A DNA stretch of 64,000 nt from Deltaproteobacteria bacterium (GTDB lineage: Bacteria; Myxococcota_A; UBA796; SXON01): assembly GCA_036676765.1 (NCBI GenBank), contig JAKFCH010000148.1, positions 11,141 through 75,140 of the forward strand, read 5' to 3'. Shown piece by piece: positions 8,407 through 53,688 of this stretch; position 1 is the first letter of the stretch; every line of letters starts with the position of its first letter. The notes under the pieces are model-generated. The model was not told the origin of the DNA. It was given only the letters and a program-made list of their open reading frames with translations, and did not search any database. The position numbers were made by a program, and so were the translations under genes.

Positions 8407-8430
8407 GGGCGCGCGGCCCGACCCGCGCCC
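8407..8430 (-). terminator. candidate hairpin just 3' of the MopE-repeat gene
   Basis: GGGCGCG (8407-8413) and CGCGCCC (8424-8430) form a 7-bp GC stem with a 10-nt loop abutting the stop codon at 8430-8432. No U-tract follows. Confidence 0.2.
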
Positions 8431-11627: not shown

Positions 11628-11749
11628 GGGGCTCCCCGACGAGGGCACCATACATGCCTTGCCACCCAAGGTCAACTCGGACCCTTGGCATCCGATGGTC
11701 CGGCGCCGTGCCACCTACCACGCGAAACCAAACCAGCCGTGCCAACGCC

Positions 11750-15518: not shown

Positions 15519-15650
15519 CGCACCCGCCCCGAGGCTCTCATGGAATCTTCCCTCTCCCGACGCCCCACCCCCCGCCAAGCCGAAAACGTCGGCCTTCTCC
15601 CGGTCGCGCGCCCCTGGCTGGCGCCCCTCCGGCGCGGATCGTTGTACTCG

Positions 15651-18960: not shown

Positions 18961-19009
18961 GCGAGCGCGCCAGCGCCATTCCCACCGTCGCCCTCGAGAA
19001 AGTCGCCGC

Positions 19010-26729: not shown

Positions 26730-26839
26730 GCGTCGATTCTACATGAAACCTCGATGCACGCAAGGCGCCTTCGCGCGATTCCGACTGCTTGCAGCCCGGC
26801 GAAAGAACGGGCATACAGGCGGTCCACAGGAAGACTACC

Positions 26840-38330: not shown

Positions 38331-39268
38331 CGGATGCACTGGAGCTGGAAGCCGCGGCCTGCCTCCTCTGCGGCGCCAGCGATGACGAGACCGTGGCGAT
38401 CAGTCCGGTACAACAGCACACCACGCGGGACGTGTTCCGCTTTGTCCGGTGCCGCGCCTGTGCGCTTGTGCGGCTCCACCCGCGCGTCCGCGCCGAGCGC
38501 GTAGGCGTCTACTATGACGCCACCTATCTGCCGCACCGCGGCGCGGCGGCCTGGGGCCGTTACGCGCCTATCGTCGAGCGGGCGTTGGGGCGGACGGATC
38601 GCGCCCGGGTCAAACGTGTGCTCGCCACCAAGCGACTCACGTCAGTCTCGCGGGTGCTCGACGTCGGCTGCGGACGTCCGACCTTTCTTCGCGCGTTGCG
38701 CGACGCCACCGGCGCCCACGCCGTGGGCATCGATTTCGTTGACGAGGCATGGCGCGGCGACCCTGCACGCTGGAGCGGGCTCGAGCTTCACGAGGGAACA
38801 TTGGAAAACGCGCCGCTCACACCCGGGTTCGACGCGATGACGCTGTGGCACGCGCTGGAGCACGATTACCAGCCGCTGGCGACGCTGCGCCGGTTGCGCG
38901 CGCTGGCGGCTCCGGACGCCGTGCTGGTGATCGAAGTCCCGAACTACGACTCGCTCTGGAGGATATGGCACGGCGCGCAATGGGCAGGTTTTCATACGCC
39001 GCGCCATACGGTGGCGTTCACCCCGGCGACGCTGCGCCACCTGGTGGAGAAGGCGGGCTGGCGTGTCGAGCAGCAGCTCCGCTACGGCACGCTCGACCCG
39101 TACATCTCGTGGTGGCTTGGCCGTCAGGAGCTCAACGGGCTCGGCGTGCGCGGCGACCTCTCCGGCCGGTTCTTCAGCTTCGTGCTCGGCAAGGCGCTGT
39201 CGCTTCCGCTGACCGTGTTTCAGCGGTGGGTGAGCATGGGCGCGCAGACGCTGATCGCGCGCGCATGA
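38327..39268 (+). CDS. class I SAM-dependent methyltransferase with an N-terminal CxxC...CxxC ribbon
   Basis: ATGA overlap with the upstream gene. CLLCGASDD...FVRCRACALV, SAM motif I VLDVGCGRPTF, post-I and motif II FDAMTLWHALEH. Confidence 0.8.
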   Translation: MTDALELEAAACLLCGASDDETVAISPVQQHTTRDVFRFVRCRACALVRLHPRVRAERVGVYYDATYLPHRGAAAWGRYAPIVERALGRTDRARVKRVLATKRLTSVSRVLDVGCGRPTFLRALRDATGAHAVGIDFVDEAWRGDPARWSGLELHEGTLENAPLTPGFDAMTLWHALEHDYQPLATLRRLRALAAPDAVLVIEVPNYDSLWRIWHGAQWAGFHTPRHTVAFTPATLRHLVEKAGWRVEQQLRYGTLDPYISWWLGRQELNGLGVRGDLSGRFFSFVLGKALSLPLTVFQRWVSMGAQTLIARA

Positions 39269-40479: not shown

Positions 40480-41159
40480 GGTGGCGGGGTCCCGGTCCGA
40501 GCGCGACGTGCTCACCCCGTGGCTCCGGTGCGGCTCGTGTGGCGGCCGCGTCCAGATCACGGCTGGAGGTCGCGCCAGCGGGGGCATCTTCCACTACTAC
40601 GTCTGCGCCTCCCGTCAGGAGAACAAGGCCCATTGCTCCGGGCTGAACGTCCGGTTGGAGAAGCTCGACGACTCCGTGCTCGGCTACATCCACGACGACG
40701 TGCTCGCGCCCGACAACGTCCGCGACCTCGTGTCCCGCTGGGCGGCCGCCCTGTCCGACCAGCCCGACGAGGTCCAGGTCGAGCGCGCCCGCCTCTCCTC
40801 CGACATTGACCAGCTGGACCAGCGTATCCGCAAGGTCGGGCTCCAGGTCGTCGATGGCGTGCTCGCCACGGAGGACACCAAGGCCCTGAACGCGCGGCTC
40901 ATCGACCGCCGCGACGCGGCGAAGCTGCGCCTCGCTTCGCTCCCCCAACGCCAGCCGACGCCCCCGGCCCATCGACGCCGACACGTTCCGCGGCGAGATC
41001 CTGACCGCGTGGGGCAACCGCCCTCTCGACGATCGCCGGGCCGCCCTCGACCGGATCATCGAGAGGATCACCCTGTCAGAGGGCGGCGCCCACGTGGACT
41101 ACCGCATCAAGGATGCGGAGGTGCCGTTTCACCAGCCTGACCCCTCAGGCCCCCCATAA
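40480..41159 (+). pseudogene. large serine recombinase gene relic (zinc-ribbon + coiled-coil C-terminal part only, frameshifted)
   Basis: ORF 40379..41140 reads LRCGSCGGRVQITAGGRASGGIFHYYVCASRQENKAHCSGLNVRLEKLDDSVLGYI...DQLDQRIRKV, a recombinase zinc beta-ribbon and coiled coil. The resolvase catalytic domain is absent. After about 40960 the sensible reading (PIDADTFRGEILTAWGNRPLDDRRAALDRIIERITLSEGGAHVDYRIKDAEVPFHQ) continues in another frame to TAA at 41157-59. Confidence 0.65.
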
Positions 41160-42976
41160 GCCCCAACATCCCCCCGCGACCCATCCGCATCCACCCGATC
41201 CGGATCCCCCGCGTTGATCGCCGGGCTCGAGGACTGGAGGTGGAAGTCGCCGGCGTCGGCGTCGACGAACAGGGGGTCCTCGACGAAGTTGCCGTTCCGC
41301 CCGGTTGGATCGCTCATGCCGATGAAGTCCGCGCCGTCGTTGGCCCAGGCGTCCGAGTAGCGCCAGTCCGTGGAGACCGAGCTGGCCACGGCGCTGCCGA
41401 GGTTGGCGGACAGGATGCTGTCGGACACGTGCGCGGAACCCGTGCCGCGCAGCGCCATGGCCGCGCCCTCGCCGGCGTGGTTGGCGTGGAGCACGACGTT
41501 GGTGATGCTCACCTCGGACAGGTCGAGGTACAGGCCGCCGCCCGCGCCGTCCGCCACGTTTCCGGCGAAGATGCCGTTCTCCAACGTCAGGGTGCCCATC
41601 TGGGCGCAAACGCCGCCGCCGCGGGGCGCCTGGTTGCCGGTCATCACGAGACGGGAGGTCTCGAGGTGGAACAACTTGCCATCGAAGGCGATGCCGCCGC
41701 CGCAGTCCCCGGACACGTTGTCCTCGAACACGGAGTCGTGCAGCTCCAGGTTCCAGTACGGCATGTTCATGTGCACGCCGCCGCCCTTGCTACCGGCCTG
41801 GTTCCGGCGGAACACGTTGCCCGTGGAATAGCTGACGTCGTCGTCGATCTCGAGCGCGCCGCCCCAGCCGTCGGCCTGGTTGTCCTCGTAGATGTTGTTC
41901 CGGAGCTCGCAGGCGTTGTGTGAGACCTTCATGGCCCCGCCGTCCCCGCCCGAGGCCACGTTCGATTGGAAGACGTTGTCCTCCACGAGCGCGCCGCCGT
42001 ACAACATGCGGAGACCGCCCGCGTCGTCGACCGCGACGTTGTCGTGGATGTGGTTGCGGAGGACGGCCCCCGTGCTCGCCTCGGTGAACCCGCCGGCGCC
42101 GTCCGTTCCGCAGGTGTTCTCGTAGACCTCGTTGTCGCTGATCTCGCCCGAGTGGAGATAGCCGGCGAAACCGCCGCCGGTCCAACGCGCGTCGTTGCCG
42201 AACACGGTGTTGCCGGTGAACGTGTAGTTCCCGTCGAACCACACGCCGCCGCCGACGTGGCCGAAGTTGTTCTCGAACACCGAGTTCCGGGTGACACCCG
42301 AGGCGCCGGTGACATAGAAACCACCCCCGTCCGCGCCGTCGTTGGACGCAAACCGGCTCTCGTCCACGTCGAGGCTGCCCCCCTCGAAGTACCCGCCGCC
42401 GCCGTCACCGCCGCTGACATTGTCGACCAGCTCGACGCGGAGCATCGACAACGTGCAGTTGCTCGACGCGATGCCAGCCCCGTGTGAGGCCCGCCCGTCG
42501 GTGATGCGCACGTCCACGAGGGACAGGGTCGCGTCCTGGCACCACATGCCGCCGCCGTAGTCGGCCTGCCCGCGCACGATGGTCAGCCCCTCCACCGTCA
42601 CCACCGATCGCGTGCTCGTCGAGACCACCTCGAGCCCGCGCGCGTCCCCCCCGGCGTCGAGGACGGCACCGTCGACGGCGTGCAGGGTCAGCGTGCGCCC
42701 GTCGATCACCACGGTCTCGGCGTACGCATCGCCCCGGATCTCGATGATCGCGTCGTCCGGCGCGGCGTCGACCGCCTCTTGGATCGTCACGTGGTCGGCC
42801 GATCCGTCCGCGGACACGGTGACGACGACGGGCTCCACGGGGACATCGCTGTCGGGAGGGCTGCCGGAGTCGTCGTCATCCGGCCCGCCGCCGCCACCGC
42901 CGCCGAAGAGGCCCTCTCCGCCCGGACCGCCGACACACCCCGCCAAAAGCACGATCCAAAGCCCCATGTCACGCAT
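41129..42976 (-). CDS. right-handed parallel beta-helix repeat lipoprotein (pectin-lyase-fold)
   Basis: Lipobox MGLWIVLLAGC, a Gly/Asp linker, then many degenerate units of G.GGG....s....v..s.F..N.a. The end DPLFVDADAGDFHLQSSSPAINAGD is typical of beta-helix repeat proteins. Confidence 0.8.
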   Translation of the reverse strand: MRDMGLWIVLLAGCVGGPGGEGLFGGGGGGGPDDDDSGSPPDSDVPVEPVVVTVSADGSADHVTIQEAVDAAPDDAIIEIRGDAYAETVVIDGRTLTLHAVDGAVLDAGGDARGLEVVSTSTRSVVTVEGLTIVRGQADYGGGMWCQDATLSLVDVRITDGRASHGAGIASSNCTLSMLRVELVDNVSGGDGGGGYFEGGSLDVDESRFASNDGADGGGFYVTGASGVTRNSVFENNFGHVGGGVWFDGNYTFTGNTVFGNDARWTGGGFAGYLHSGEISDNEVYENTCGTDGAGGFTEASTGAVLRNHIHDNVAVDDAGGLRMLYGGALVEDNVFQSNVASGGDGGAMKVSHNACELRNNIYEDNQADGWGGALEIDDDVSYSTGNVFRRNQAGSKGGGVHMNMPYWNLELHDSVFEDNVSGDCGGGIAFDGKLFHLETSRLVMTGNQAPRGGGVCAQMGTLTLENGIFAGNVADGAGGGLYLDLSEVSITNVVLHANHAGEGAAMALRGTGSAHVSDSILSANLGSAVASSVSTDWRYSDAWANDGADFIGMSDPTGRNGNFVEDPLFVDADAGDFHLQSSSPAINAGDPDRVDADGSRGDVGAYGGPEGSGW

Positions 42977-43058: not shown

Positions 43059-46000
43059 CTATCCGCCGTTCTCCGCCCGGATCCGCCCCAACTCCTCGGC
43101 GACCACCCCGGCGGTCCAGGCCAGCTGGGCCTCGGAGTGCAGGGAGGAGAGGAAGAAGCGCAGGCGCGAGGCGTTGTCCGCCACCGCCGGGTACAGGATT
43201 GGCTGGACGTTGACGCCGCGCTTCATCAGCGCGTCCGACAAGAGAAGCGCGTGGAAGCTGTTCCCCACGATGACCGGGCACACGCCGCTCTCGCCGGCGG
43301 AGGGTCCGGTGTCCAGGTTGTGCTTCTGACACTCGGCATAGAAGAAGCGGGCGTTGGCCTGCAGCTTCTTCACGTTCTCCGGCTCGCGCTCCATGAGCTC
43401 GAGCGAGGCGATGGCGGCCATCGTGTTCGCGGGGGAGAGGCCCGCCGAGTAGATGAAGCCGGGGGCGGTGTACTTCAGGAGCTGCACGAGCACGCGGCTG
43501 CCAGCAATATAGCCACCGCAGCTCGACAGGGACTTGGAGAGGGTCCCCATCCAGATGTCGATGTCGGTGCCGGGCACGCCGAAGTGCTCGGAGACGCCGT
43601 AGCCGCGCTCCCCGACGACGCCGAAGGAGTGGGCCTCGTCGACCATGAGGAAACACTTGTGGCGCTTCTTCAACGCCACGTAGGCGGGGAGATCGCAGAT
43701 GTCCCCATCCATGGAGTACACACCCTCGACCACGATCAGCGCCTTCTCGAAGTTGGGCCGGAGCTGCTCCAACAAGCGGGCCAACGCCGCGGTGTCCCCG
43801 TGGGGGAAAGGCCGCCGCGTGGCGCCCGAGAGCTTCATGCCCTGGAACACCGAGTCGTGGATGAGCTCGTCGTGGAGGATGAGGTCCTTCGGCCCGAACA
43901 GGTGACCGACCGTCGTGACGTTGGTGGCATGGCCCGCGGTGAACACCACGCTCTCCTCGACGCCGAGGGCCGCGGCGATGCGCTGCTCCAACTCGAGGTG
44001 GATGGGGCGCTCGCCCGACGCCACGCGGCTCGCGCTCACGCTGGTGCCGTACTTGCGCACGGCCTCGGTGACCCGCTGCTCGACGTAGGGGTGCCCCGAG
44101 AACCCGAGGTAGTTGTACCCGGAGAAGTGGACGCGCTCCTTGCCGGCGATCTCCACCACGTCCCGCGCGGTGCCCTCGAGCACCTTGAAGTACGGGTTGT
44201 CGATGCCGAGCATCAACGCCGCCTGGAGGCGCTGGTCGAGGTCGATCCACGCGGGGAACCGCGCGAAGTCGGTGAACTCGGGTGACACGGCCAACTCACC
44301 GGGGAGCGCGCGCAGCTCGCCCTCGACGCCCTCGCCGACGGCCACGACCTCGCCGTTCGCGCGACGCAACACGACGGTGCCCGTGAACCGGTCGCCGGTG
44401 TTGGCCTCGAACGTGACGGCCACGTCGAGCACCTCGTCCGCCGTCACGTGACGTTGGGTCCACGCGCGCACCTTGACCGGGAAGCCGGCGCGCTGCCGCT
44501 TCTCGAACGCCCAGAGGCCGCAGAGCTGGAGCGCGGAGTCGATGGCGAGCGGCGAGAAGGTCCAACCGTCCTGGCCCCACGCCACGGACGAGCCGACGCG
44601 AACCTTGCCGGTGACGTGCTGATCGCCGAGGACCCCCACCGACACGATGCCCTGGAGCAGCGGCCCGTGGAACGTGTGGTTGCTGTAGAAGTCGGCCAGC
44701 GCGGTCTTGGCGGCGGCGCCGCCGGTCGGCAGGTCGGGCACCATCGACGGTTCGATTTCGAGGCCCTTCCCAACCTCCGCGGCCACGGCGCTACCGACGC
44801 GGCCCTCCCAAGCCAGCTTGGATCCGACCAGCACCCGGAACCGCTCGCCGTCGAGGCGGAGCCGCGCGACCAGCGGCTTCTCGACCACGACACCGTCGAA
44901 CAGGGTGAGGTCGTGTACCGTCGGGCCGGCGCCCACCGCCGCGCCGAGCCGGATGGCCCATTCGAGCACCATCGCCATCGGCACGGTCGGGCGGCCCATG
45001 AGCGCGTGGTCGCGCAGCCAGGGCATCTCGGGAGAGAGGGCCTCGGTCACTTCGAGCGAGCGCCGCACCGCCGGGAGATCGAGGCCGAGCACGACCTCGC
45101 CGGGGATGCCGAGCGCCTGAACGAAGGCGCGGGCGCCCTGCGCGGTGTCGACGAACACGACGCCGTCCTCGCGCATGGCGACGCGCATCGGGAGCGGCAC
45201 GGTGCCGACCATCGTGGAGTCGGCCCACGGGCCCCACACCTGCACCTGCGCGTGGATGTCGCGCGCCGCGAGCCCGGGGAGCAGCCCGACGAGCCCGTCG
45301 TTGGCGGCGGCGTACTCGGTCTGGAACGCGTTGCCGAAGAACGCCGCGTAGCTGCCGATCGCGCTCACCCACCGCACACCGGGGCAGGCGTCCACGAGGC
45401 GGAGGAGGCCGTTGACCTTGATGTCCCAGGCGGCGGTCCCGTCGACCTTGCCGACGGGGCCGTCCGCGAGCACACCCGCGGCGTGCACGATGCCGTCGAT
45501 GCCGTCGAGGGTGGGCACGATGCCCCGGAGGTCGGCGCGCACGTAGCGGGCGGACGCGCCGAGGTTCGCCAGGGCGTCCCCCGGGTCCTGCCGCGAGCCG
45601 AGGAGCACGACCTCCGCGCCCGCGTCGATCAGCGCGCGCGCGAGCACCTGGCCGAGCCAGCCGGTGCCGCCGCTCACGAGGATGCGTTGCCCGGCGACGT
45701 TCATCGGCGCGGGGGCGTCGTGCGGGGCGAGCCCGACGACGAAGCGCGCACCGCCCTCGTAGTGCACCACCGCGTCGCGTTCGGCCGCGGCGAGCTCCGC
45801 CACGGCGTCGGCTTCGGTGCCGTACACGAGCACGACCTTGTGGTCGGCCCACTCGCGGGAGAGGGCGCGGACGAAGCCCAGGACGCCATGTTCGTGGGGC
45901 GCCGCAAGGAGGCCCGCCATCGGGATCACCACCGCGACATCGCCCGGGGTGAGCGCGCGGAGCGCGGCGAGGCTCGGCTTCACGAGCACGCGCCCGCTCG

Positions 46001-49000
46001 TCGCGCGGGCGTGGCCGGAGAGCGGCGCGGCGCGGAGCACGGGCCGGTAGAGCGCGAGCTCCCGGTCGGGCAACGTGAGCGCGACGCTGCTCGCCTCGGC
46101 GCCCTCGACGTGGCGCACCAGGTCCGCCACCGTCGGCGAGGTCGCGAACAGCGACCGCGGGATGCCCGTGAAGCCCGGTACGGCCTCACCGAGCTTCGTC
46201 GAGAGCTCCGCGAGCATGAGCGAGTCGAAGCCGAGATCGTCGAGCAGGCGCTGCTCCACGCGCAGGGCATCGAGCGGGAACGCCGACACCTTCGACACCA
46301 CGCGCAGCACGCGGGCCTCGATGTCCTCCCCGTCGACGCCGCCCCCCTCGAAGGAGACGGGCTCCGAGCGCTCGGGGGGGGCGTTGCGGGGGGGCTCGCC
46401 CCCCTGCCCCAAGATCCCGGAGGTTCCGTACGCGAAGTCGGCGTTCGAGCGGCCGGTGTCCTGGACCGCCCAGTACTGCTGGGTGGTGAACGGCGTCGGC
46501 GGTAGCGACGCGAGGCCCTCGCCGAAGCCGGTGAGGTCGACGCGGTGGCCCGCGGCGGCGAGGCGGGCGAGCAGACGGAGGAGCCCGAGCCCGTCCGTGT
46601 CGCTCTCGCTCGCGACGGAGAGGATCTCGGCGTCCGGCACGACCCCGCGCGCGAACGCGGTGAGGGTGGCGCCGCTGCCGAGCTGCACGAAGATGCGCGC
46701 GCCGGCGTCCCAGCACTGCTGCAGGCCGCGCACGTACTCCACCGGGGAGGTGGCGTGGCGCGCGAAGATGGCCCGCACCTCCGCCGCGGAGGTCGGGGGC
46801 GTGGCGTGGATGCACGACGCCATCGGGGCGGTCGGCGCGGTGAACGCAACCTCGGCGAGCCCGCGTTCGACATCGTCCTGGACGGACTCGAGCATCGGCG
46901 AGTGGAACGCGTGCGAGACCGGGATGCGACGCGCCTTGAGCCCGGCGGCGGCCAGCGCGACCAGCGCGCGCTCCACCTCGGCCGTGGGCCCGGAGATCAC
47001 GTTCTGGCGTGGGTGGTTGCGGTTGGCGATCACCACCGTGGGCGGCAGGTGCGGGGCGACGGCGTCGGCCTCGGCCATCACCGCGGCCATGGCGCCGTGG
47101 TCCCCGGGCATGGCCGACATGGCCTTGCCGCGGCTCGCGACGAAGCGCAGGGCCTCCCGCGCGGGGGCCCCGCCGGCAAGCGCCGCGGCGGTGAACTCGC
47201 CGAGCGAGTGGCCGAGCACGATCGCGGGGGTGATGCCGTAGCGGGCGAGCACGGCGGCCACGGCGACGCCGATCGCGAACATCGCCGGCTGGGCGATCTG
47301 CGTGTCGGTGAGGGCCTCCTCGGTCGCGTCGGGCGCCCAGATGTACTCAGTGAGCGGACGCGCGGTGAGGTCGAGGACGTCGCGCTCGCAGGCGGCCATC
47401 GCCTCGGCGAACGGCGGGAGGTGCAGCCAGTCGCGCAGCATGCCGACCTTCTGCATGCCCTGCCCGGGCGCGAGGAAGGCCACCGGCACGGGCTTACCCG
47501 CATCCCCGAGGACGATGTCGCGGTGGAGGGCGCCGCGGGTCGAGGGGTCCTTCGAGAGCGCGTCCGCGGCCGTCTGGAGGCGCTCGGCGAGCTCGGTCAC
47601 GGTGCGGGCAACGATCGCGACGCGCACGGCGCGGCGCTTGCGGCCGAGGTTCAGCGTGTGGGCGATCGCGGCGAGATCGCCGGCGTCGTCGAGGGTGGCG
47701 GCCAGCTCGGCGCAGTGCCGGGCGAGCAGCGCGCCGTCGTCCGCGCTGGTCACGACGAGCACGCCGGGGAGGGCGTGCAGGGGCTCGGGGATCCGCGCGC
47801 CCACGAAGATCCGCCCCGGGCGCCCGCTTCCGCGCGCCGGCGCCTCTTCGAGCACGACATGGCCGTTGGTGCCGCCGAACCCGAAGGACGACACGGTGGC
47901 GCGGCGCGGGGTCACGCTCCGCCACGGCGCGGCCACGGTCGGGACGGTGAACGTGCCGTCGTCGAGCTGGTGGAGGGGGTGGGGCGCCGACCAGTTCGCG
48001 AGCGGGGGGATGGTCTTGTGGTGGATCGCGAGCACGGCCTTGATCAGGCCGGCGACCCCCGCGGCCGACATCGTGTGGCCGATGTTCCCCTTCGCCGAGC
48101 CGAGGGGCACCGGGGCACGGCCGGACGCGCCGTCGCGACGGTCACCGATCATGGTGCGCAGCGCGCCGAGCTCGGTCTTGTCCCCGACGGTGGTGCCGGT
48201 GCCGTGCGCCTCGACGTACCCGATCTGATCGGCGGTCACGCCGGCGTCCGCCCACGCCTGCGCGATGACGGCCTCCTGGCCCTCGGCGCGGGGGCTCATC
48301 GGGCCGTCGCCCCGGCCGTCGTTGTTGCAGCCGCTGCCCCGGATGACCGCGTACACGCGATCGTGGTCGCGGACGGCGTCCTCCAGGCGCTTGAGCATCA
48401 CCATGCCCACGCCCTCGCCCTGCACGAACCCGTCGGCGTCGGCGTCGAAGGGGCGGCACACGCCCTTGGCGCTGATGGCGCCGATGCGCGAGAACGCGAT
48501 GAGGTTCTCGGGCGAGAGGTTGAGGTAGACGCCGCCGGCCACCGCGGCGTCGATCTGGCCGTCGCGGAGGTAGGTCACGGCGTCGTGGATCGCCACGAGC
48601 GCGGAGGCGCACGCCGCGTCGACGGTGAAGGCGGGGCCGCCCAGATCGAGCTCCTGCGCCACCACCGCCGCCGACATGTTGCCGAGCGCGCCCGCCGCGG
48701 TGAACGCGCGGGTCTGGACCACGCGGTTGACGGCCGAGGCCATCAACCGGGCCTCCTCGGCGCTCGCGGCACCCTGGCCGAGATCGCCCGAGGCCATCAT
48801 CGCCGCGGCCACGCGCGTGCTCATCAGCGAGCGGTACTCGGTGCACGAGAGCCCGAGGAACGTGCCGACGCGACGGCGGTCGAGGCCGCGGCCGAGCGTG
48901 CCCGGCCCGCTCGCGCGGTCGATGGCGGGCGCGTAGCCGGCGTCCTGGAGGGCGTGCCACGCGGCCTCGAGCGTGAGGCGCTGCTGCGGGTCCATCACCT

Positions 49001-49265
49001 CGACGCGGCGCGGCGGGATGCCGTACTCCAGCGCGGCGAAGCTGCGCACGTCGTCCACGAACGCGCCGTGGGGCGCGTAGTAGCGGTCGGTGGCGCGCTG
49101 CACGTCACTGAAGAAGGCGGCGTGGCTCCACCGGTCGGCGGGCGGCGGCCCGAAGGCGTTGCGCCCCTCCCGGATCAGCCGCCAGTAACGGGAGACGTTG
49201 GGGGCGCCGGGAAAACGGCATGCCATCCCGACGATCGCGATCGGGCCACCGGACGTGCGGGACAT
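43059..49265 (-). CDS. type I polyketide synthase, KS-AT-ACP-KR-DH order, fused to a C-terminal alpha-oxoamine synthase (AONS/SPT-like PLP enzyme)
   Basis: KS: VGMACRFPG, DAACASALVA, EAHGTGT, GNIGH. AT: GHSLGE, HAFHS (malonyl type). ACP: LGFDSLM. KR: SGGTGWLG, YAAAN. Hot-dog DH: LRDHALMGRPTVP. AOS: SGYNYLGF, VEGVYSMDGD, MVDEAHSFG, GTLSKSL (PLP Lys). Confidence 0.9.
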   Translation of the reverse strand: MSRTSGGPIAIVGMACRFPGAPNVSRYWRLIREGRNAFGPPPADRWSHAAFFSDVQRATDRYYAPHGAFVDDVRSFAALEYGIPPRRVEVMDPQQRLTLEAAWHALQDAGYAPAIDRASGPGTLGRGLDRRRVGTFLGLSCTEYRSLMSTRVAAAMMASGDLGQGAASAEEARLMASAVNRVVQTRAFTAAGALGNMSAAVVAQELDLGGPAFTVDAACASALVAIHDAVTYLRDGQIDAAVAGGVYLNLSPENLIAFSRIGAISAKGVCRPFDADADGFVQGEGVGMVMLKRLEDAVRDHDRVYAVIRGSGCNNDGRGDGPMSPRAEGQEAVIAQAWADAGVTADQIGYVEAHGTGTTVGDKTELGALRTMIGDRRDGASGRAPVPLGSAKGNIGHTMSAAGVAGLIKAVLAIHHKTIPPLANWSAPHPLHQLDDGTFTVPTVAAPWRSVTPRRATVSSFGFGGTNGHVVLEEAPARGSGRPGRIFVGARIPEPLHALPGVLVVTSADDGALLARHCAELAATLDDAGDLAAIAHTLNLGRKRRAVRVAIVARTVTELAERLQTAADALSKDPSTRGALHRDIVLGDAGKPVPVAFLAPGQGMQKVGMLRDWLHLPPFAEAMAACERDVLDLTARPLTEYIWAPDATEEALTDTQIAQPAMFAIGVAVAAVLARYGITPAIVLGHSLGEFTAAALAGGAPAREALRFVASRGKAMSAMPGDHGAMAAVMAEADAVAPHLPPTVVIANRNHPRQNVISGPTAEVERALVALAAAGLKARRIPVSHAFHSPMLESVQDDVERGLAEVAFTAPTAPMASCIHATPPTSAAEVRAIFARHATSPVEYVRGLQQCWDAGARIFVQLGSGATLTAFARGVVPDAEILSVASESDTDGLGLLRLLARLAAAGHRVDLTGFGEGLASLPPTPFTTQQYWAVQDTGRSNADFAYGTSGILGQGGEPPRNAPPERSEPVSFEGGGVDGEDIEARVLRVVSKVSAFPLDALRVEQRLLDDLGFDSLMLAELSTKLGEAVPGFTGIPRSLFATSPTVADLVRHVEGAEASSVALTLPDRELALYRPVLRAAPLSGHARATSGRVLVKPSLAALRALTPGDVAVVIPMAGLLAAPHEHGVLGFVRALSREWADHKVVLVYGTEADAVAELAAAERDAVVHYEGGARFVVGLAPHDAPAPMNVAGQRILVSGGTGWLGQVLARALIDAGAEVVLLGSRQDPGDALANLGASARYVRADLRGIVPTLDGIDGIVHAAGVLADGPVGKVDGTAAWDIKVNGLLRLVDACPGVRWVSAIGSYAAFFGNAFQTEYAAANDGLVGLLPGLAARDIHAQVQVWGPWADSTMVGTVPLPMRVAMREDGVVFVDTAQGARAFVQALGIPGEVVLGLDLPAVRRSLEVTEALSPEMPWLRDHALMGRPTVPMAMVLEWAIRLGAAVGAGPTVHDLTLFDGVVVEKPLVARLRLDGERFRVLVGSKLAWEGRVGSAVAAEVGKGLEIEPSMVPDLPTGGAAAKTALADFYSNHTFHGPLLQGIVSVGVLGDQHVTGKVRVGSSVAWGQDGWTFSPLAIDSALQLCGLWAFEKRQRAGFPVKVRAWTQRHVTADEVLDVAVTFEANTGDRFTGTVVLRRANGEVVAVGEGVEGELRALPGELAVSPEFTDFARFPAWIDLDQRLQAALMLGIDNPYFKVLEGTARDVVEIAGKERVHFSGYNYLGFSGHPYVEQRVTEAVRKYGTSVSASRVASGERPIHLELEQRIAAALGVEESVVFTAGHATNVTTVGHLFGPKDLILHDELIHDSVFQGMKLSGATRRPFPHGDTAALARLLEQLRPNFEKALIVVEGVYSMDGDICDLPAYVALKKRHKCFLMVDEAHSFGVVGERGYGVSEHFGVPGTDIDIWMGTLSKSLSSCGGYIAGSRVLVQLLKYTAPGFIYSAGLSPANTMAAIASLELMEREPENVKKLQANARFFYAECQKHNLDTGPSAGESGVCPVIVGNSFHALLLSDALMKRGVNVQPILYPAVADNASRLRFFLSSLHSEAQLAWTAGVVAEELGRIRAENGG

Positions 49266-49282
49266 CAGCGCTCCAGACGGGC

Positions 49283-49522
49283 CTACGCCCGATTCTTCTC
49301 GATCAACGCCATGAGGTCACCGAACGTGTTGATGCGGACCATCACCTCGTCGGAGAACTGGACGTCGAGCTTCTCTTCGAGGAATCCGACCATCTCCATC
49401 GTGGCGACGGAGTCGAGGCCGAGATCGCGGATCTCGGTCTCGGGCTTGATGGTGGCCAGCTTCGAGGCCTTGCTGGTGTCCACCGCGGTGATCGCGGCCT
49501 TGATGAGTTCCAACGCTTCCAT
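49283..49522 (-). CDS. stand-alone acyl carrier protein
   Basis: 79 aa with the phosphopantetheine site LGLDSVATMEMV. It sits 17-18 nt from both neighbours. Confidence 0.85.
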   Translation of the reverse strand: MEALELIKAAITAVDTSKASKLATIKPETEIRDLGLDSVATMEMVGFLEEKLDVQFSDEVMVRINTFGDLMALIEKNRA

Positions 49523-49540
49523 GTTTGGATTCCTAGGGGG

Positions 49541-51382
49541 TCAGGAGGGTCGATTGAAGACCTTGCTCGCGGCGTGGGTAGCACGTCCGAGCAGGGAACG
49601 GGCGAGGTGACGCGCCACCGTGAGCTTCTCGCCCGTGGCGCCGAGCGTCCGTACGCCCTCTCCGCCGAGCTCGCCCGCGAGGTACTGCTCGCGCGTCTTC
49701 CGGCGTTGGAGCTTGCCGGACGAGGTCTTCGGCAGCTGGCCGGCCCCGAGCAGCACCACGTCCGACACCCGGAGGGAGAGCTGGTCGGCCACGGCGGACT
49801 TGATCGCCTCGGCGAGGCCCGGCGGCGGCTCGGCCCGGGTCTCGGCGACGACGACGAGCTCCTCGCTCTCCTTGCCGGGGCGGGAGAACGCCACGACGTT
49901 GCCCTTCCGCACGCCGTCGATCTCGGCGACGGACCACTCGATGGTCTGCGGGTGGTGGTTGCGGCCGTTGAGGATGATGAGGTCCTTGCTCCGGCCGGTG
50001 ATGAACACGTTGCCGTCGTGGACGAAGCCGAGATCTCCGGTGCGGAGCCAGATGGTGTCGTCCGGCGCGGCGTCCGCGTCCACCGACGGGATGGCCCGGA
50101 ACACCTCGCCCGTGGCGTCGGCGTTCTTCCAGTAGCCCTCCGTGAGCGACGGGCCGGCGAACACGAGCTCGCCCTCCCGGTCCTCGCCGAGGAGCACGCC
50201 GTCGGCATCGATGACGCCGATGCGGTGGTTGGAGAACGGCTTGCCGCAGCCGACGAAGGAGAGCGCGAGCGCGTCGTCGCTCGCGGGGGCGGCCACCCGG
50301 CCCTCGCCGCGGAAGGTCTCGGCGTCGAGGAGCAGCACCGGAAGCTCGGACCCGACTGGCGCGAAGGACATCGCGAGCGTCGCCTCGGCCATGCCGTACG
50401 CCGGCATCGGGACGCCCGGCTTCAGGCCGCACCCGGCGAAGCGCTCGACGAACTCCAACATCACGTTCGCGTTGATGGGCTCGGCGCCGCAGCCGATGAG
50501 GCGCACGCGGGAGAGGTCCCAGGTGGCGAGCTCCTTCTCGGAGGCGCGCTTCGTCGCGAGCGCGAACGCGAAGTTCGGCCCGAACGAGAGCGTGCCCTTG
50601 TACTCGTGCAGCGTCTGGAGCCAGATGTTGGGGCGCTTCACGAACGAGAGCGTCGGGATGAACACGACGTCCGTGCCCTTCATGAGCGGCGTAATGACGA
50701 AGCCGATGAGCCCCATGTCGTGGTAGAGCGGCAGCCAGCTCACCGCCACGTCGCTGCCGAGCTCGAGGCCCATCCCCTCCGTCGCGATCGCCCAGCAGTT
50801 CGCCACCAGGGACTTGTGGGTGACCATCACGCCCTTGGGCGCGGAGGTCGATCCACTCGTGAACTGGAGGAAGGCGAGATCGTCGGCGGTGATCTCGGGG
50901 AGCACGCCGTCCCCGCGCTTGCCGGCGTCGATGGACTCGACCACCACGAGGTCACGCAGCGAGGACACGCGGGGGACGACCTGCCACAAAATAGACGACA
51001 GCGCCTTGTCCGTCACGATGAGCTTGGCGCCGGCCACCTCGAGGATGGACACCGCGCTGTCGGCGTAGGCGTCGAGCTTGCCGAACGAGAGCGGCGGGAA
51101 CATCGGCACCGGCACCACCCCCGCGAGCAGGGCGCCGAGGAAGGTGATGACGAAGTCCTGGGGCTGCGAGAGCACCATGGCCACGCGGTCGCCGCGGGTC
51201 AGGCCCTGCCCGAGGAGCGCGTGGGCGCGGACCTCGGCCGCGCGGTACAGCGCCGCGTAGGAGAAGAAGGTGGGCTTGCTCGCGTTGTCGAGGAAGGTGT
51301 AACCGTGCTTTTCGATTCCGCGGATGCGACGGAGCGCCTCGACGACGGTAGCGGGCGCGTGGGACAGATCGACGGTCGACAC
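49541..51382 (-). CDS. fatty acyl-AMP ligase (FAAL, FadD32-like adenylating enzyme)
   Basis: LQFTSGSTSAPKGVMVTHKSLVAN, WLPLYHDMGLI, GYGMAE-type core (AYGMAEATL), RTGDLGF, and the FAAL-typical N-terminus (GYTFLDN...FFSYAAL). GTG start with a GGAGGG site 6 nt upstream. Confidence 0.85.
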   Translation of the reverse strand: MSTVDLSHAPATVVEALRRIRGIEKHGYTFLDNASKPTFFSYAALYRAAEVRAHALLGQGLTRGDRVAMVLSQPQDFVITFLGALLAGVVPVPMFPPLSFGKLDAYADSAVSILEVAGAKLIVTDKALSSILWQVVPRVSSLRDLVVVESIDAGKRGDGVLPEITADDLAFLQFTSGSTSAPKGVMVTHKSLVANCWAIATEGMGLELGSDVAVSWLPLYHDMGLIGFVITPLMKGTDVVFIPTLSFVKRPNIWLQTLHEYKGTLSFGPNFAFALATKRASEKELATWDLSRVRLIGCGAEPINANVMLEFVERFAGCGLKPGVPMPAYGMAEATLAMSFAPVGSELPVLLLDAETFRGEGRVAAPASDDALALSFVGCGKPFSNHRIGVIDADGVLLGEDREGELVFAGPSLTEGYWKNADATGEVFRAIPSVDADAAPDDTIWLRTGDLGFVHDGNVFITGRSKDLIILNGRNHHPQTIEWSVAEIDGVRKGNVVAFSRPGKESEELVVVAETRAEPPPGLAEAIKSAVADQLSLRVSDVVLLGAGQLPKTSSGKLQRRKTREQYLAGELGGEGVRTLGATGEKLTVARHLARSLLGRATHAASKVFNRPS

Positions 51383-51518: not shown

Positions 51519-52844
51519 TCACGGAGCCGTGGGGTGTACGCCCGCTTCGGCTCGCGCGCCGGCGCCACGCCGGAAGCTCCAGGTGAGGGCCGGGGGCGTG
51601 AGCAGCGTGGTGAGGATGACCATGATCACCACCGCGGTGAACGTGCCGTCGTCGATGATGCGCTCGCCCGCCACGGTGAGCCCGAGGCCGATGTTCGCGA
51701 AGATGAGGCCCACCTCGCCGCGCGGGATCATGCCGATGCCGACCGGCAGCCGGCGGATGGACTTGTCGAACACCCCCAGCATGCACACCTGCTTGCCGAT
51801 GACCGCGGCCACCGTGAGCGCGAGGGCGAGGCCGAGCACCTCGACGTGGGCGAACGTCGCGAGGTCCACGCGGAAGCCCATGACGACGAAGAACACCGGC
51901 GCGAGGAACTGCGAGACCGGCCGGACGAGCTCCTCGAGCTCGTGCTCCCCCTTGGCCACGAACGGCTTGTAGTGCACGCCCTCGAGGATGAGCCCGGCGG
52001 CGAACGCGCCGACGATGGGGGCGAGGCCGAACACGCCGGCGAGCCAGGACAGGGCGAAGCAGAAGGCGAGGCTCACCCCGAGGAGCACGCCGCTTCCCTG
52101 CATCCGGCTGGCGAACCGGTACAGCGCCGGGGTCAGGAGCACGCCGAGGCCGACGGAGCCGCCGAGGAACAGGACCGCCTTGCCGACGATGATCGCGATG
52201 GGGCCGAGCTCCGCGGCCTGCCCCTGGTCGGCGGCGGCGATGATCCCGCTCACCGCCGCGAGGGCGACGAGGCCGAGGACGTCGTCGATCACCGCGGCGC
52301 CGAGGATGACCCGCGCCTCCTTGCTCTGGCTCTGCCCGATGTCGCGGAGCACGCGCGCGGTGATGCCGACGCTCGTGGCGGTGAGCGTCGCGCCCAGGAA
52401 CATGTGCACGTAGAACGAGTGCTCCGGCAACAGGACGGCGCCGACGCCGAAGCCGAGCACGAACGGCGCGACGACGCCGAGCACGGCGACCACCGCGGCG
52501 GACAGCCCCACCCGCGCCATCTGCTGGATGGTCGACTCCAGACCGACCTCGAACAGCAGCACGATGACGCCGAGGTTGGCGAGGGCGTCCACGATCGGGT
52601 CGGTGCCGACGAAGTCGAAGACGCGGACGCCGAAGAGGTCGAGGTTCCCGACGAGCACGCCGCCGACGAGCTCGCCGAGCACGGCGGGCTGGCCGAGGCG
52701 CTGGGCGAGGTCGGCGCCGAACTTGGCGGCGAGGAGGATGATCGTGAGGGCGAGGAGGGTGGGCCCGAGGGAGTCGTGCCCCTCGCTCGCGTGCGCGACC
52801 ATCGGGAGCGCGCAGAGGAACAGGGGAATCAATCGAGCGCGCAC
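51519..52844 (-). CDS. cation:proton antiporter (CPA2 / Kef-type Na+/H+ exchanger family)
   Basis: Polytopic. LLAAKFGADLAQRLGQPAVLGELVGGVLVG, FEVGLE, and GMIPRGEVGLIFA near the C-terminus. I take GTG 52844 as the start. The ORF stays open to 53051 through the tandem repeat (see finding). Confidence 0.8.
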   Translation of the reverse strand: MRARLIPLFLCALPMVAHASEGHDSLGPTLLALTIILLAAKFGADLAQRLGQPAVLGELVGGVLVGNLDLFGVRVFDFVGTDPIVDALANLGVIVLLFEVGLESTIQQMARVGLSAAVVAVLGVVAPFVLGFGVGAVLLPEHSFYVHMFLGATLTATSVGITARVLRDIGQSQSKEARVILGAAVIDDVLGLVALAAVSGIIAAADQGQAAELGPIAIIVGKAVLFLGGSVGLGVLLTPALYRFASRMQGSGVLLGVSLAFCFALSWLAGVFGLAPIVGAFAAGLILEGVHYKPFVAKGEHELEELVRPVSQFLAPVFFVVMGFRVDLATFAHVEVLGLALALTVAAVIGKQVCMLGVFDKSIRRLPVGIGMIPRGEVGLIFANIGLGLTVAGERIIDDGTFTAVVIMVILTTLLTPPALTWSFRRGAGARAEAGVHPTAP

Positions 52845-52883
52845 CAGACCTCCGGGCGCGGGGTTTAACGTGGGGGTGGGGGC

Positions 52884-53033
52884 GACGTCCGTCCGTCGGG
52901 GATGGCGCGCTACCCGGGGCGGACGGACGTCGGGGACGTCCGTCCGCCGAGGATGGCGCGCTACCCGGGGCGGACGGACGTCTGGGACGTCCGTCCGGCG
53001 AGGATGGCGCCCTACCCGGGGCGGACGGACGTC
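52884..53033. repeat. three tandem 51-nt units, each a 12-bp perfect inverted repeat around a 24-nt loop
   Basis: Arms are GACGTCCGTCCG and CGGACGGACGTC, at 52884-95/52920-31, 52935-46/52971-82 and 52986-97/53022-33. Loops are NCGRGGATGGCGCSCTACCCGGGG. Spacers are GGG and TGG. Confidence 0.85.
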
Positions 53034-53268
53034 CTGCGCCCCGCAACCCACCGCTCCACCGCGCCGTTCACGCCATCCCGCGCCAGGCGCCCGGAACGCG
53101 GCCGCGTCCTCGCGGCCGGTCCCGACCGCGCCCCCCCGCGCTCGACCCGACGACGCTGCCGAGGCGCGGGCGGACCGAGCCCGAACGGGCGAGCGTGGAG
53201 GGGGCCGACGGCGGCGGAGCCGCCGGGGCGCCCGGATCTCGCGAGGGCCCCCGCGTTAGCTCCCTGGG

Positions 53269-53688
53269 ATGAACCCCTGGCCCGGCCTGCCCCTCACCGT
53301 CATGTCGTCGCACATCGACATGTTCGGCCACGTCAACCACACCCGGTACCTCGAGTTCATGGAGTGGGCGCGGTTCGCGTGGGCCGCGGACCTCGGCGTG
53401 CCGCTCCCCGAGCTGGTCCGCGACGAGGGCATCGGCCCCGCGATCATCCGCGCCCAGGTCGCCTTCCGTCGCGAGTGCCGCCTCGGCGACGAGCTGCTCG
53501 TCACCGTCCGCCCGCTGTCCGCCCGCCGCGGCATCGGCCGCCTCCACCAGGACATCCACGACACCCGCACGAACGAGCGCGTGTGCGACGCCGAGATGAC
53601 GTTCGTGATGCTCGATCTCACGACGCGGCGCGCGGTGCCGCTGCCCGCGTTCTTCCTCGACCAGCTCCCCCAGAAGCTCGCGGAGTAG
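53269..53688 (+). CDS. hot-dog fold acyl-CoA thioesterase (4HBT/YbgC-like)
   Basis: VMSSHIDMFGHVNHTRYLEFMEWARFAW is the catalytic Asp and HVN context typical of the family. 139 aa. Confidence 0.85.
   Translation: MNPWPGLPLTVMSSHIDMFGHVNHTRYLEFMEWARFAWAADLGVPLPELVRDEGIGPAIIRAQVAFRRECRLGDELLVTVRPLSARRGIGRLHQDIHDTRTNERVCDAEMTFVMLDLTTRRAVPLPAFFLDQLPQKLAE

Follow-up and report, generated by a model that had tools for sequence, protein, structure and literature searches.

Three neighbouring genes in the window (the whole 64,000-nucleotide stretch of DNA that was analysed) are predicted to form an assembly line for an unsaturated sphingoid base, in which a fatty acid would undergo one malonyl extension, ketoreduction, dehydration and condensation with serine; we consider the chances of this reading to be about even. 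It builds on observed gene order, domain identity, conserved catalytic residues, operon conservation and the clade membership of the terminal PLP-dependent alpha-oxoamine synthase (AOS). As the first-pass annotation had stated, the genes are co-directional and closely spaced (gaps of 18 and 17 nt), and the ORF listing and translations bear this out. All lie on the minus strand and encode a fatty acyl-AMP ligase (FAAL; 49541–51382, 613 aa, GTG start), a stand-alone ACP (49283–49522, 79 aa) and a megasynthase with the order KS-AT-ACP-KR-DH-AOS (43059–49265, 2068 aa). Their GC3 values of 0.95–0.96, in surrounding DNA of about 70% GC, fit real genes. A beta-helix lipoprotein ORF (41129–42976; lipobox LLAGC, weak NosD/pectin-lyase matches in Pfam) does follow 82 nt 3′ of the synthase gene, as had been noted, but this gene is kept only in three close relatives and is outside the system.

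The 613 aa protein is identified by its sequence matches as a FAAL, predicted to activate a fatty acid and load it onto a carrier protein. Pfam detects AMP-binding (4.5e-64) and a C-terminal AMP-dom_DIP2-like domain, and NCBIfam's top match is PRK09192, a fatty acyl-AMP ligase model, at 472 bits and thus under its cutoff of 600. FAALs account for all of the closest PDB relatives (3pbk, 294 bits; FadD32, 277; 3kxw, 262), whereas the acyl-CoA synthetase FadD13 scores 87 bits. The 79 aa ACP matches PP-binding (1.3e-09) and carries the DS motif LGLDSV.

In the megasynthase all Pfam domains scored above their gathering thresholds and, together with an AlphaFold2 model and Foldseek searches, they uphold the domain order originally assigned. 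The KS (47994–49244, minus strand, aa 8–424; ketoacyl-synt 4e-73, Ketoacyl-synt_C 1e-38) has the catalytic triad Cys219/His354/His397, indicating a condensing enzyme. An insertion of about 40 aa on the N-terminal side of the active-site Cys is also found in a Streptomyces KS-AT-ACP-AOS protein. The AT (46650–47477, minus strand, aa 597–872; Acyl_transf_1 1.1e-41) is of the malonyl type, with the motifs GHSLGE, Arg712 and HAFH (in SHAFHS). The internal ACP (46107–46313, minus strand, aa 985–1053; PP-binding 7.2e-07) contains LGFDSL with Ser1015, which does not vary among 16 aligned homologues. All catalytic residues of the synthase are intact and invariant across these homologues (46–80% identity), as are the sequences SHAFHS, YAAAN, HALMGRPTVP, DSALQ and GTLSKSL, which correspond to motifs named in the first-pass annotation.

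The full-length architecture recurs in more than 120 protein clusters, far beyond chance. At 53 related full-length loci, the FAAL gene is co-directional with the synthase gene and no more than 3 kb upstream of it in all but four (49/53), and the ACP gene sits between the two in 48. This arrangement persists across 41–86% identity and is also found in a 6.87-Mb Myxococcota MAG; the carriers of the full architecture found are all uncultured MAGs of the Myxococcota or Bradymonadia type. In deeper subclades a CFA-synthase-like methyltransferase gene lies between those for the FAAL and the ACP, an acyl-ACP-desaturase-like gene lies between the ACP and synthase genes, and genes for a DesA-like desaturase, a HetI-like PPTase and an SDR occur in or beside the operon; one related locus has the co-directional operon SDR-FAAL-CMAS-ACP-synthase. 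These lipid-tailoring genes point to a fatty-acid-derived lipid, and the operon-linked SDR is likely to be the 3-keto reductase.

In the proposed pathway, a cellular fatty acid would be adenylated by the FAAL and moved onto the 79 aa ACP. The acyl chain would then pass to the synthase KS while the AT charges the internal ACP with malonate; a single decarboxylative condensation would give a 3-ketoacyl-ACP. The KR, B-type by motif, would produce a 3-hydroxyacyl-ACP and the DH an (E)-2-enoyl-ACP, whose double bond would be retained because there is no ER. Finally, a PLP-dependent decarboxylative Claisen condensation with L-serine, catalysed by the AOS, would free the chain as a 2-amino-1-hydroxy-3-keto-4-ene long-chain base of the 3-ketosphingosine type. 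Reduction by an unlinked SDR would follow, with N-acylation probably encoded elsewhere in the genome. Against this reading, the 64-kb window contains no ceramide synthase or CerR gene and no SDR gene for the 3-keto step; its SDR at 15540–16580 belongs to a different subfamily from the operon-linked SDR of relatives. That extension happens once, that serine is the amino acid used, that the double bond is E-4 and what becomes of the product are points that we infer. Pks13/FadD32 and the olefin synthase Ols offer precedents for extending a FAAL-loaded fatty acid by a single round; no characterised AOS is known to us to take an alpha,beta-unsaturated thioester. The sphingosine-type reading first put forward is thus supported by the domains, the AOS clade and the catalytic residues, with the product itself a prediction from sequence.

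KS-AT-ACP-KR-DH is also the domain order of the iterative PUFA and enediyne synthases, which makes more than one extension round conceivable. Several cycles on a fatty-acyl or short starter would build a conjugated polyenoyl chain, which the AOS would free as a polyunsaturated amino-ketone. The synthase shares with PfaA, HglE and PKSE the placement of the ACP before the reductive domains and has no ER; PfaA (TIGR02813) is its second-best whole-protein NCBIfam match, at 541 bits against a cutoff of 1010. A HetI-type PPTase is linked at some related loci, and in the window's clade a divergently oriented hotdog 4HBT thioesterase gene lies upstream of the trio; enediyne PKSs employ a thioesterase of this type. 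The related SgaA also works iteratively (PMC12134224). On the other hand, about 92% of loci retain a dedicated FAAL and ACP, consistent with a pre-formed long starter. The nearest solved structures to the KS-AT are non-iterative cis-AT modular PKSs (e.g. CurL, 439 bits), with no enediyne PKS among the best 60 PDB matches to this region. Unlike PfaA, HglE and PKSE, the synthase carries one internal ACP rather than a tandem array, is without PfaB/C/D-type partners and ends in an AOS instead of a PPTase or the chain end; genes for CLF, FabA-type DH or ER partners are likewise absent. We therefore regard the iterative route as unlikely, and since the KS-AT is nearest to cis-AT modular PKSs and the ACP is single, the earlier description 'PfaA-like' holds for domain order and not beyond it.

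The AOS domain (43062–44228, minus strand, about aa 1680–2068; Aminotran_1_2 9.5e-44 at 1712–2048) has Lys1911 (in GTLSKS), His1803, Asp1876 and His1879, together with YNYLG and SASR motifs. In comparisons that included a plasmid tblastn search, it is 52% identical to PfSgaB (390 bits), 55.6% to an SgaB-like protein on a Pseudomonas plasmid and 46.6% to an RkpG-like protein on S. meliloti pSymB. Identity to the BioF, Kbl, HemA, Thermus AOS, Bacteroidota SPT and plant LCB2a references is only 29–37%. In an NJ tree without bootstrap values, with few references and no Rhodobacteria-type Spt, it falls inside a clade of SgaB, RkpG and PKS-fused domains; LCB2a adjoins this clade, Bacteroidota SPTs lie one node farther, and BioF, Kbl and HemA are outside. 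Almost all of the nearest 150 AOS representatives are C-terminal domains of multidomain proteins. PfSgaB from P. fluorescens, a serine palmitoyltransferase whose L-serine specificity is biochemically demonstrated, is fed by a PKS and joins acyl-thioesters to L-Ser almost exclusively over Ala and Gly (PMC12134224). We infer that the AOS is an SgaB-type serine palmitoyltransferase, its serine preference being extrapolated from PfSgaB.

The first-pass annotation had left the amino acid as Ser, Ala or Gly. Use of Ala, Gly or another amino acid by the same assembly line, yielding a lipid of the 1-deoxy or another amino-ketone type, or a signalling molecule, seems to us improbable, although AOS specificity is unreadable from sequence. 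In NCBIfam the BioF model outscores the SPT models (336 bits, cutoff 426, versus 290, all below cutoffs), the broad-specificity Thermus AOS is marginally the top PDB match (228.6 bits versus 224.9 for S. multivorum SPT), and aquatic metalipidomes are rich in 1-deoxyceramides (PMC11334938). What favours serine is the near-exclusive specificity of the nearest characterised enzyme, PfSgaB, the YNYLG and S-A/S-SR pocket motifs that the AOS has in common with PfSgaB and with plant LCB2a, an SPT subunit, and a clade that adjoins SPTs rather than BioF or Kbl.

Between the internal ACP and the AOS, the KR-DH region is barely detectable against the PDB by sequence (top match 39 bits). The KR (45084–46043, minus strand, about aa 1075–1394 with structural and catalytic parts; Pfam KR 1.4e-17 at 1195–1349) has GGTGWLG, Lys1283, Ser1305, Tyr1318 and Asn1322 (YAAAN), and 'LAD' at the LDD position suggests a B-type enzyme. 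The DH (44325–45050, minus strand, aa 1406–1647; PKS_DH_N 3.7e-08, PS-DH 2.3e-10) has His1420 in HALMGRPTVP (HxxxGxxxxP), a GYxYGPxF-like FHGP and Asp1576/Gln1580 (DxxxQ) in DSALQ. An AlphaFold2 model of residues 1075–1665 (pLDDT 84.4, pTM 0.78) places this divergent region within the PKS KR and DH folds: Foldseek matches the KR part, its structural subdomain included, to PKS ketoreductases such as PlmKR1 and TylKR1, and the DH part to the PKS double-hotdog DHs MlnB (TM 0.76), GphF, CurK and PpsC (target TM 0.67–0.76).

It is conceivable that these domains act non-canonically, the DH being an isomerase or silent, or the KR reducing the released amino-ketone, to leave a saturated, beta-hydroxy or 3-hydroxy base. 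The sequence divergence of the region would allow this, GphF DH1, among the best fold matches, is an isomerising DH, and the homologous Streptomyces KS-AT-ACP-AOS protein has no KR-DH. Moreover, the window's operon has no 3-keto reductase gene of its own close by. However, the KR K-S-Y-N and the DH His and Asp/Gln are intact and invariant over 46–80% identity, and the separate operon-linked SDR in many relatives suggests a role for the internal KR other than 3-keto-amine reduction. We rate this alternative as less likely still than a change of amino acid.

A reading as a biotin-type AONS, or as a chance fusion with no link to lipids, is effectively refuted. Some source databases tag homologues as '8-amino-7-oxononanoate synthase' and TIGR00858 is the top AOS-type NCBIfam match, but the domain scores under the BioF cutoff, is 30–34% identical to BioF of E. 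coli and Azospirillum and lies in the SgaB clade. There are no bio genes in the window or related loci, and fusion and operon are conserved in 55 loci.

Among known systems, the proposed one-round logic resembles that of FadD32/Pks13 (mycolic acids) and Ols/CurM, in which a FAAL loads a long fatty acid on an ACP and one KS condensation is followed by unusual off-loading, by a thioesterase or by a sulfotransferase and thioesterase; here off-loading would instead be PLP-dependent Claisen condensation with an amino acid. In SxtA (saxitoxin), Fum8 (fumonisin), SphA (sphingofungin), PigH/RedN and CqsA, PLP-dependent decarboxylative condensation ends a carrier-protein pathway, as predicted here, but none follows a KR-DH pair or is predicted to use a 2-enoyl substrate. 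Of these, the PDB comparison covered CqsA and SphA, to which the AOS has low similarity (79 and 93 bits) against 225 for S. multivorum SPT. Two uncharacterised fusions from cultured bacteria have an AOS of the same clade (52–54% identity). That of Streptomyces anthocyanicus (KS-AT-ACP-AOS, 1607 aa, beside an MMPL transporter) also shares the KS insertion, AT and ACP (39% identity over the first 948 aa) but is without KR-DH; that of Planktothrix agardhii plasmid p3 (KS-AT-DH-ER-KR-ACP-AOS, 2532 aa, with FAAL and GT39 genes) has, unlike the window synthase, the canonical fully reducing order including an ER.

The canonical bacterial entry to sphingolipids, in Caulobacter and other Rhodobacteria, combines Spt, a dedicated AcpR and the acyl-ACP synthetase AasR, followed by bCerS and CerR (PMC9386255). 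As is predicted for the window, an adenylating enzyme loads a small dedicated ACP that feeds a serine-condensing AOS. Canonical Spt, however, is stand-alone and uses saturated acyl-ACP or acyl-CoA directly, with no KS-AT-KR-DH step; it belongs to other AOS clades, as judged from the Bacteroidota SPTs in the tree (33–36% identity to the window AOS), and its neighbours bCerS and CerR are absent from the window.

Closest is SgaAB of P. fluorescens MYb115, which makes PKS-derived sphinganines (Peters et al., 2025, PMC12134224) and has older genetic equivalents in the capsule loci of Sinorhizobium (RkpA/RkpG) and Burkholderia (WcbR). There too a type I PKS passes acyl-ACP to an AOS of the common clade, as is predicted for the window AOS, and the product is a serine-derived long-chain base. 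SgaA-type PKSs, in contrast, have the order KS-AT-DH-ER-KR-ACP (about 2500 aa), are iterative and are separate from the AOS. SgaA builds the entire saturated C24–C28 chain de novo, whereas in the trio the FAAL and ACP would supply a ready-made fatty acid. SgaAB-type clusters also contain an SDR gene, and those of rhizobia, Pseudomonas plasmids and Microbulbifer include capsule genes. The KS-AT-ACP-KR-DH order, the missing ER, the fused AOS and the FAAL-supplied chain together predict an unsaturated base rather than the saturated one of SgaAB.

The literature yielded no paper that assigns a product to the fused, ER-less, FAAL-primed architecture or characterises such a fused enzyme. PKS-derived sphingoid bases are already established by SgaAB; what is new is this architecture, from which an unsaturated base is predicted. 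If the prediction is correct, a sphingosine-like backbone would be made without an oxygen-dependent desaturase.

The three genes lie on the minus strand of the window, which has a GC content of about 70%, in the order FAAL (49541-51382, 613 aa), ACP (49283-49522, 79 aa) and synthase (43059-49265, 2068 aa), each with a GC3 of 0.95-0.96. The first-pass annotation had described them as co-directional and 17-18 nt apart, and the ORF listing bears this out: the ACP gene lies 18 nt downstream of the FAAL gene and the synthase gene follows after a further 17 nt. Pfam and NCBIfam models match gene 1 to AMP-binding enzymes, in particular to fatty acyl-AMP ligases, and recognise an ACP in gene 2. In the synthase they place KS (aa 8-424), AT (aa 597-872), ACP (aa 985-1053), KR (aa 1195-1349), DH (aa 1406-1647) and a C-terminal class I/II aminotransferase-fold domain of the alpha-oxoamine synthase family (aa 1712-2048), in agreement with the domain order proposed previously. 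The motifs quoted in support of that order are all present, namely GHSLGE and HAFH (AT), LGFDSL (ACP), GGTGWLG and YAAAN (KR), HALMGRPTVP and DSALQ (DH) and GTLSKS (AOS). The top PDB matches to gene 1 were all FAALs (E. coli FAAL, 294 bits; FadD32, 277; Legionella FAAL, 262), whereas fatty-acyl-CoA synthetases scored 87-91 bits (FadD13, 87); its score against NCBIfam PRK09192 was 472 bits, under the cutoff of 600. Since its sequence is nearer to FAALs than to acyl-CoA synthetases and a carrier-protein gene adjoins it, we assign gene 1 as a FAAL.

The arrangement KS-AT-ACP-KR-DH had been likened to PfaA and HglE. The likeness to these synthases and to the enediyne PKSEs holds for the domain order but does not extend to partners, tandem ACPs or family-level similarity. 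The window synthase has one ACP instead of a tandem array and ends in an AOS rather than a PPTase. PfaA-type partner subunits (CLF, FabA-type DH, ER) were absent from the window and from the related loci examined, and the PfaA model TIGR02813 matched the KS-AT region only, at 541 bits against a cutoff of 1010. On account of the domain order an enediyne/PUFA-type KS-AT was considered, and was rejected on sequence, the best PDB matches to the KS-AT being modular cis-AT PKSs (CurL, 439 bits). These results also bear on the possibility that the synthase extends its substrate iteratively to a polyene. Although PfaA and PKSE synthases with this domain order are iterative, the nearness of the KS-AT to modular enzymes, the solitary ACP and the conservation of a dedicated fatty-acid loader make such a product unlikely.

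We then turned to the AOS domain, which fell below every curated NCBIfam cutoff, reaching 336 of 426 bits for BioF (TIGR00858), 267 of 460 for KBL and 290 of 640, 256 of 500 and 186 of 670 for the SPT models. In the PDB it matched the broad-specificity Thermus AOS (228.6 bits), Sphingobacterium SPT (224.9) and Arabidopsis LCB2a (220.8), followed by KBL (173-190), Sphingomonas SPT (about 163), AONS (118-162) and CqsA (79). The best tblastn matches in plasmid and megareplicon records, at 47-56% identity, were all next to or inside type I PKS genes. PfSgaB, the L-serine-specific SPT of Pseudomonas fluorescens MYb115, whose sequence was taken from the supplement of PMC12134224, is 52% identical to the window AOS over 378 residues (390 bits) and has in common with it the pocket motifs YNYLG and YGTSVSASR, as well as GHATNVT and DIWMGTLSK-L-SCGGYIAG. 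Neighbour-joining analysis of 27 AOS sequences placed the window AOS and its family inside a clade of SgaB, RkpG and PKS-fused domains; LCB2a adjoined this clade, Bacteroidota SPTs were one node further out, and Kbl, Thermus AOS, BioF and HemA lay outside. Identities were 47-78% within the clade compared with 29-37% beyond it (BioF, at 30-34% to the window AOS, Kbl, HemA, Thermus AOS, Bacteroidota SPT and LCB2a). In a HMMER search of 1.84 billion representatives, nearly all of the best 150 AOS relatives (48-70% identity) were C-terminal in multidomain proteins of 430-3980 aa, and several of those examined end likewise in KR-DH-AOS. Placement in the SgaB clade, together with this position in multidomain proteins, points to a carrier-protein-fed, SPT-type off-loading domain and not a biotin enzyme. 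Purified SgaB condenses acyl-CoAs with L-serine and is virtually inactive with alanine or glycine (PMC12134224). We consider it improbable that the window AOS, with the same pocket motifs, condenses an amino acid other than serine.

By direct sequence search of the PDB the KR-DH segment gave only weak SDR matches (best 39 bits), and its structure was predicted instead. Residues 1075-1665 were modelled from a 10-sequence alignment (pLDDT 84.4, pTM 0.78). In Foldseek comparisons the first ~330-360 residues corresponded to complete PKS ketoreductases including the structural subdomain (PlmKR1, TylKR1 and amphotericin KRs), and the last ~270 to PKS double-hotdog dehydratases (MlnB, target TM 0.76; GphF DH1, CurK and PpsC). 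The KR has a complete catalytic tetrad, with 'LAD' at the LDD position, a B-type signature that normally precedes a trans double bond; the DH has its His/Asp-Gln dyad, and the synthase contains no ER. Across 16 aligned homologues (46-80% identity to the window synthase) the catalytic residues are invariant in the KS (Cys219, His354, His397), AT (Ser687, Arg712, His785), internal ACP (Ser1015), KR (Lys1283, Ser1305, Tyr1318, Asn1322), DH (His1420, Gly1424, Pro1429, Asp1576, Gln1580) and AOS (His1803, Asp1876, His1879, Lys1911), indicating that all six activities are under selection. The expectation that the KR and DH active sites would be intact was thus upheld, and we think it quite unlikely that either domain is used non-canonically.

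Full-length relatives of the synthase, of 2000-2150 aa and identical Pfam composition, form more than 120 clusters at 90% identity. A scan of one genome per GTDB species gave at least 80 loci, at least 55 of them with the full-length fusion among the matches listed; among the matches listed, every fusion carrier is a MAG, with the label Myxococcota, 'Deltaproteobacteria', Bradymonadia or unresolved bacteria. Some fusion-bearing, family-typical contigs (L003, L015-L017, L023 and L031) carry titles such as 'Klebsiella pneumoniae', 'Bifidobacterium breve' or 'uncultured Enterobacteriaceae' and are evidently mislabelled MAG records. Among the matches listed, 53 fusion loci had enough upstream DNA; a FAAL gene lies on the same strand within 3 kb upstream in 49 of these, and an ACP gene between FAAL and synthase in 48. 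A closed Myxococcota MAG of 6.87 Mb has the trio too. When the neighbouring ORFs of the related loci listed were clustered all against all, no further core genes emerged.

Deeper subclades add accessory genes to this core. A CFA-synthase-like methyltransferase is found between FAAL and ACP, and an acyl-ACP-desaturase-like gene just upstream of the synthase, with any called ACP gene preceding it; one or other occurs in L029, L034, L036, L037, L052 and L093, and in L039, L046, L048, L071 and L080. In part of these loci a DesA-like membrane desaturase, an SDR and a PanE-like reductase are near the operon, and deeper subclades also have a HetI-like phosphopantetheinyl transferase inside or beside it. 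An SDR of the PRK06181 type is linked to the operon in about a dozen deeper-branching relatives, and in L093 an SDR, FAAL, CMAS, ACP and synthase form one co-directional operon. This lipid-tailoring context argues that the product is a lipid derived from a fatty acid, that its chain is edited on the carrier and that a separate reductase step takes place; it also suggests that in the deeper subclades tailoring of the carrier-bound chain precedes extension.

No 3-ketosphinganine-reductase-type SDR (SgaC/RkpH) was found adjoining the window operon. The SDR at 15540-16580 first clustered with the operon-linked SDRs, but belongs to subfamily PRK06196 rather than PRK06181 and so gives no evidence for a linked reductase. 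The gene for a beta-helix lipoprotein (41129-42976, minus strand; lipobox LLAGC, a Gly/Asp-rich linker and weak NosD/pectin-lyase matches) does lie downstream of the synthase on the same strand, as had been pointed out, at a distance of 82 nt, but its membership of the operon was rejected, as was that of the Na+/H+ exchanger at 51519-53051: homologues of each occur in only 3 of 81 related loci among the matches listed, and cluster with the operon only in the closest relatives of the window. At the corresponding downstream position, 13 loci of other subclades have a gene for a secreted protein of ~380 aa that is unrelated to the lipoprotein and has no Pfam match. Divergent from the operon and upstream of it is a YbgC-like 4HBT hotdog thioesterase (53269-53688, plus strand), with homologues in 11 related loci by tblastn among the matches listed; gene maps place them upstream of the operon in the 62-86% identity clade of the window. 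The enzyme may have an editing role, or the position of its gene may reflect no more than conserved synteny. Three overlapping co-directional genes (35738-39268, plus strand) encode a sulfotransferase, a UbiA-prenyltransferase/HAD-hydrolase fusion and a SAM methyltransferase; counterparts are absent near the synthase in the related loci listed, and the three may constitute a small operon of their own for the modification of a lipid or metabolite. The window also encodes a fusion of Ser/Thr protein kinase and FGE-sulfatase (formylglycine-generating-enzyme-like) domains (18923-21433, plus strand), and genes for FGE-like proteins and kinases, each standing alone, turn up repeatedly close to the synthase in several related loci. 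Two secreted proteins of very large size (8430-11714, minus strand; 26789-29671, plus strand) consist of 9-11 MopE-type putative metal-binding repeats, the second with a weak fibrillar-collagen C-terminal domain match besides. No bio genes were found in the window or the related loci; with the BioF cutoff missed and the domain outside the BioF branch, identification of the AOS as BioF was rejected and a biotin-type role is scarcely conceivable. Biotin AONS was the main challenge to the first-pass interpretation, which survives all the tests run.

Among known systems, the SgaAB cluster of P. fluorescens MYb115, which makes C24-C28 sphinganines and phosphoglycerol sphingolipids (PMC12134224, 2025), and RkpA/RkpG resemble the window trio in two respects: the window AOS falls in the SgaB clade, and a type I PKS with competent active sites is present in the same polypeptide. 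However, SgaA-type enzymes are fully reducing, iterative KS-AT-DH-ER-KR-ACP synthases separate from the AOS. In its predicted working principle the trio matches SgaAB, as a pathway in which a PKS feeds an SPT. Because the window synthase lacks an ER, has another domain order, carries a fused AOS and is primed by FAAL and ACP, the trio is a variant of SgaAB and not an orthologous cluster. Among the best tblastn matches, SgaAB-type clusters are also present on a Pseudomonas plasmid (a 2497-aa KS-AT-DH-ER-KR-ACP PKS, then AOS, SDR and capsule genes), on S. meliloti pSymB (an RkpA/RkpG-type PKS, AOS, SDR and capsule genes) and on a Microbulbifer plasmid with the same layout as pSymB. In these three loci (L084, L088 and L089) the SgaAB/RkpAG-type PKS-AOS-SDR genes lie within capsular-polysaccharide loci, and a PKS-made sphingoid lipid would fit as a lipid anchor for the capsule. 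In the canonical ceramide pathway (Spt-bCerS-CerR), Spt is a stand-alone enzyme, whereas the window AOS is part of a fusion and does not group with the Bacteroidota SPTs; the window genes that were scanned include nothing resembling bCerS or CerR. An ACP and a FAAL, both conserved in related loci, are the candidate counterparts of AcpR and AasR, and the trio may be seen as an analogue of the module of AcpR, AasR and Spt of the Caulobacter type (PMC9386255).

Among proteins of cultured organisms, the nearest with the scaffold of the window synthase is a 1607-aa KS-AT-ACP-AOS of Streptomyces anthocyanicus, which is without KR-DH. It shares with the window synthase an insertion of ~40 residues in the N-terminal domain of the KS, between the DPQQR motif and the active-site Cys (aa ~115-185 of the window synthase; window 48400-48900, minus strand), that is also present in P0126 and missing from SgaA-type and Planktothrix KS domains; it might be where the free-standing acyl-ACP docks. 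Plasmid p3 of Planktothrix agardhii NIVA-CYA126/8 (L085) encodes a 2532-aa KS-AT-DH-ER-KR-ACP-AOS fusion with an AOS of the same clade; in its vicinity are genes for a FAAL, for an alpha/beta hydrolase and for two glycosyltransferases of family GT39, and the group may be a glycosylated amino-lipid cluster. In the literature searched we found no publication giving KS-AT-ACP-KR-DH-AOS proteins a product or function. Literature searches on AOS/AONS domains in PKSs returned just unrelated 'AOS' and saxitoxin papers, and those focused on Myxococcota returned nothing on this fusion. The trio is a variant of the PKS-fed SPT pathway type established in 2025 and not a new category.

The chemistry beyond domain identity is what we infer from the encoded proteins. 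The FAAL would put a cellular fatty acid on the small ACP, and the KS, which is of the condensing kind, would lengthen the chain once using malonyl-ACP, formed with the malonyl-type AT and the one internal ACP. In the absence of an ER, the KR and DH would yield an (E)-2-enoyl-ACP, which the AOS would condense with L-serine, with loss of CO2, to release a 2-amino-1-hydroxy-3-keto-4-ene base. A Cn fatty acid would then give a Cn+4 base, so that C14 leads to a d18:1-type skeleton and the iso-C15 acid, a fatty acid typical of myxobacteria, to an iso-C19 base. The 3-keto group would be reduced by an SDR, whose gene is linked in many relatives and not in the window, and enzymes encoded elsewhere would carry out N-acylation. 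For the sequence of one round of extension, KR-DH processing and serine condensation to a 3-keto-4-ene base, we put the chances at about even.

Eukaryotes introduce the 4,5-trans double bond of sphingosine at a late stage, when an oxygen-dependent desaturase acts on dihydroceramide; to our knowledge, characterised bacterial pathways make saturated bases. We tentatively raise the possibility that a single FAAL-primed megasynthase uses polyketide chemistry, with KR and DH and no ER, to set the delta-4 trans double bond of the sphingosine type ahead of serine condensation, which would be a route to sphingosine-type bases that needs neither oxygen nor a desaturase. If so, the double bond would be built before amino-acid attachment, in a parallel to the anaerobic formation of unsaturated fatty acids by FabA and by PUFA synthases. 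The interest of the system lies in this predicted desaturase-free double bond, its wide spread in uncultured Myxococcota and its modular accessory genes. If the synthase works as predicted, the trio would serve as a compact set of three genes for making sphingosine analogues out of supplied fatty acids, and as a genetic marker for the unsaturated sphingoid bases of environmental lipidomes. It would also take PKS-made sphingolipids, a concept dating from 2025, beyond host-associated proteobacteria to the abundant, uncultured Myxococcota of fresh and marine waters. As part of the same tentative proposal, it may be the main sphingolipid entry for a large uncultured aquatic Myxococcota/Bradymonadia clade, with subclades further desaturating or cyclopropanating the ACP-bound chain.
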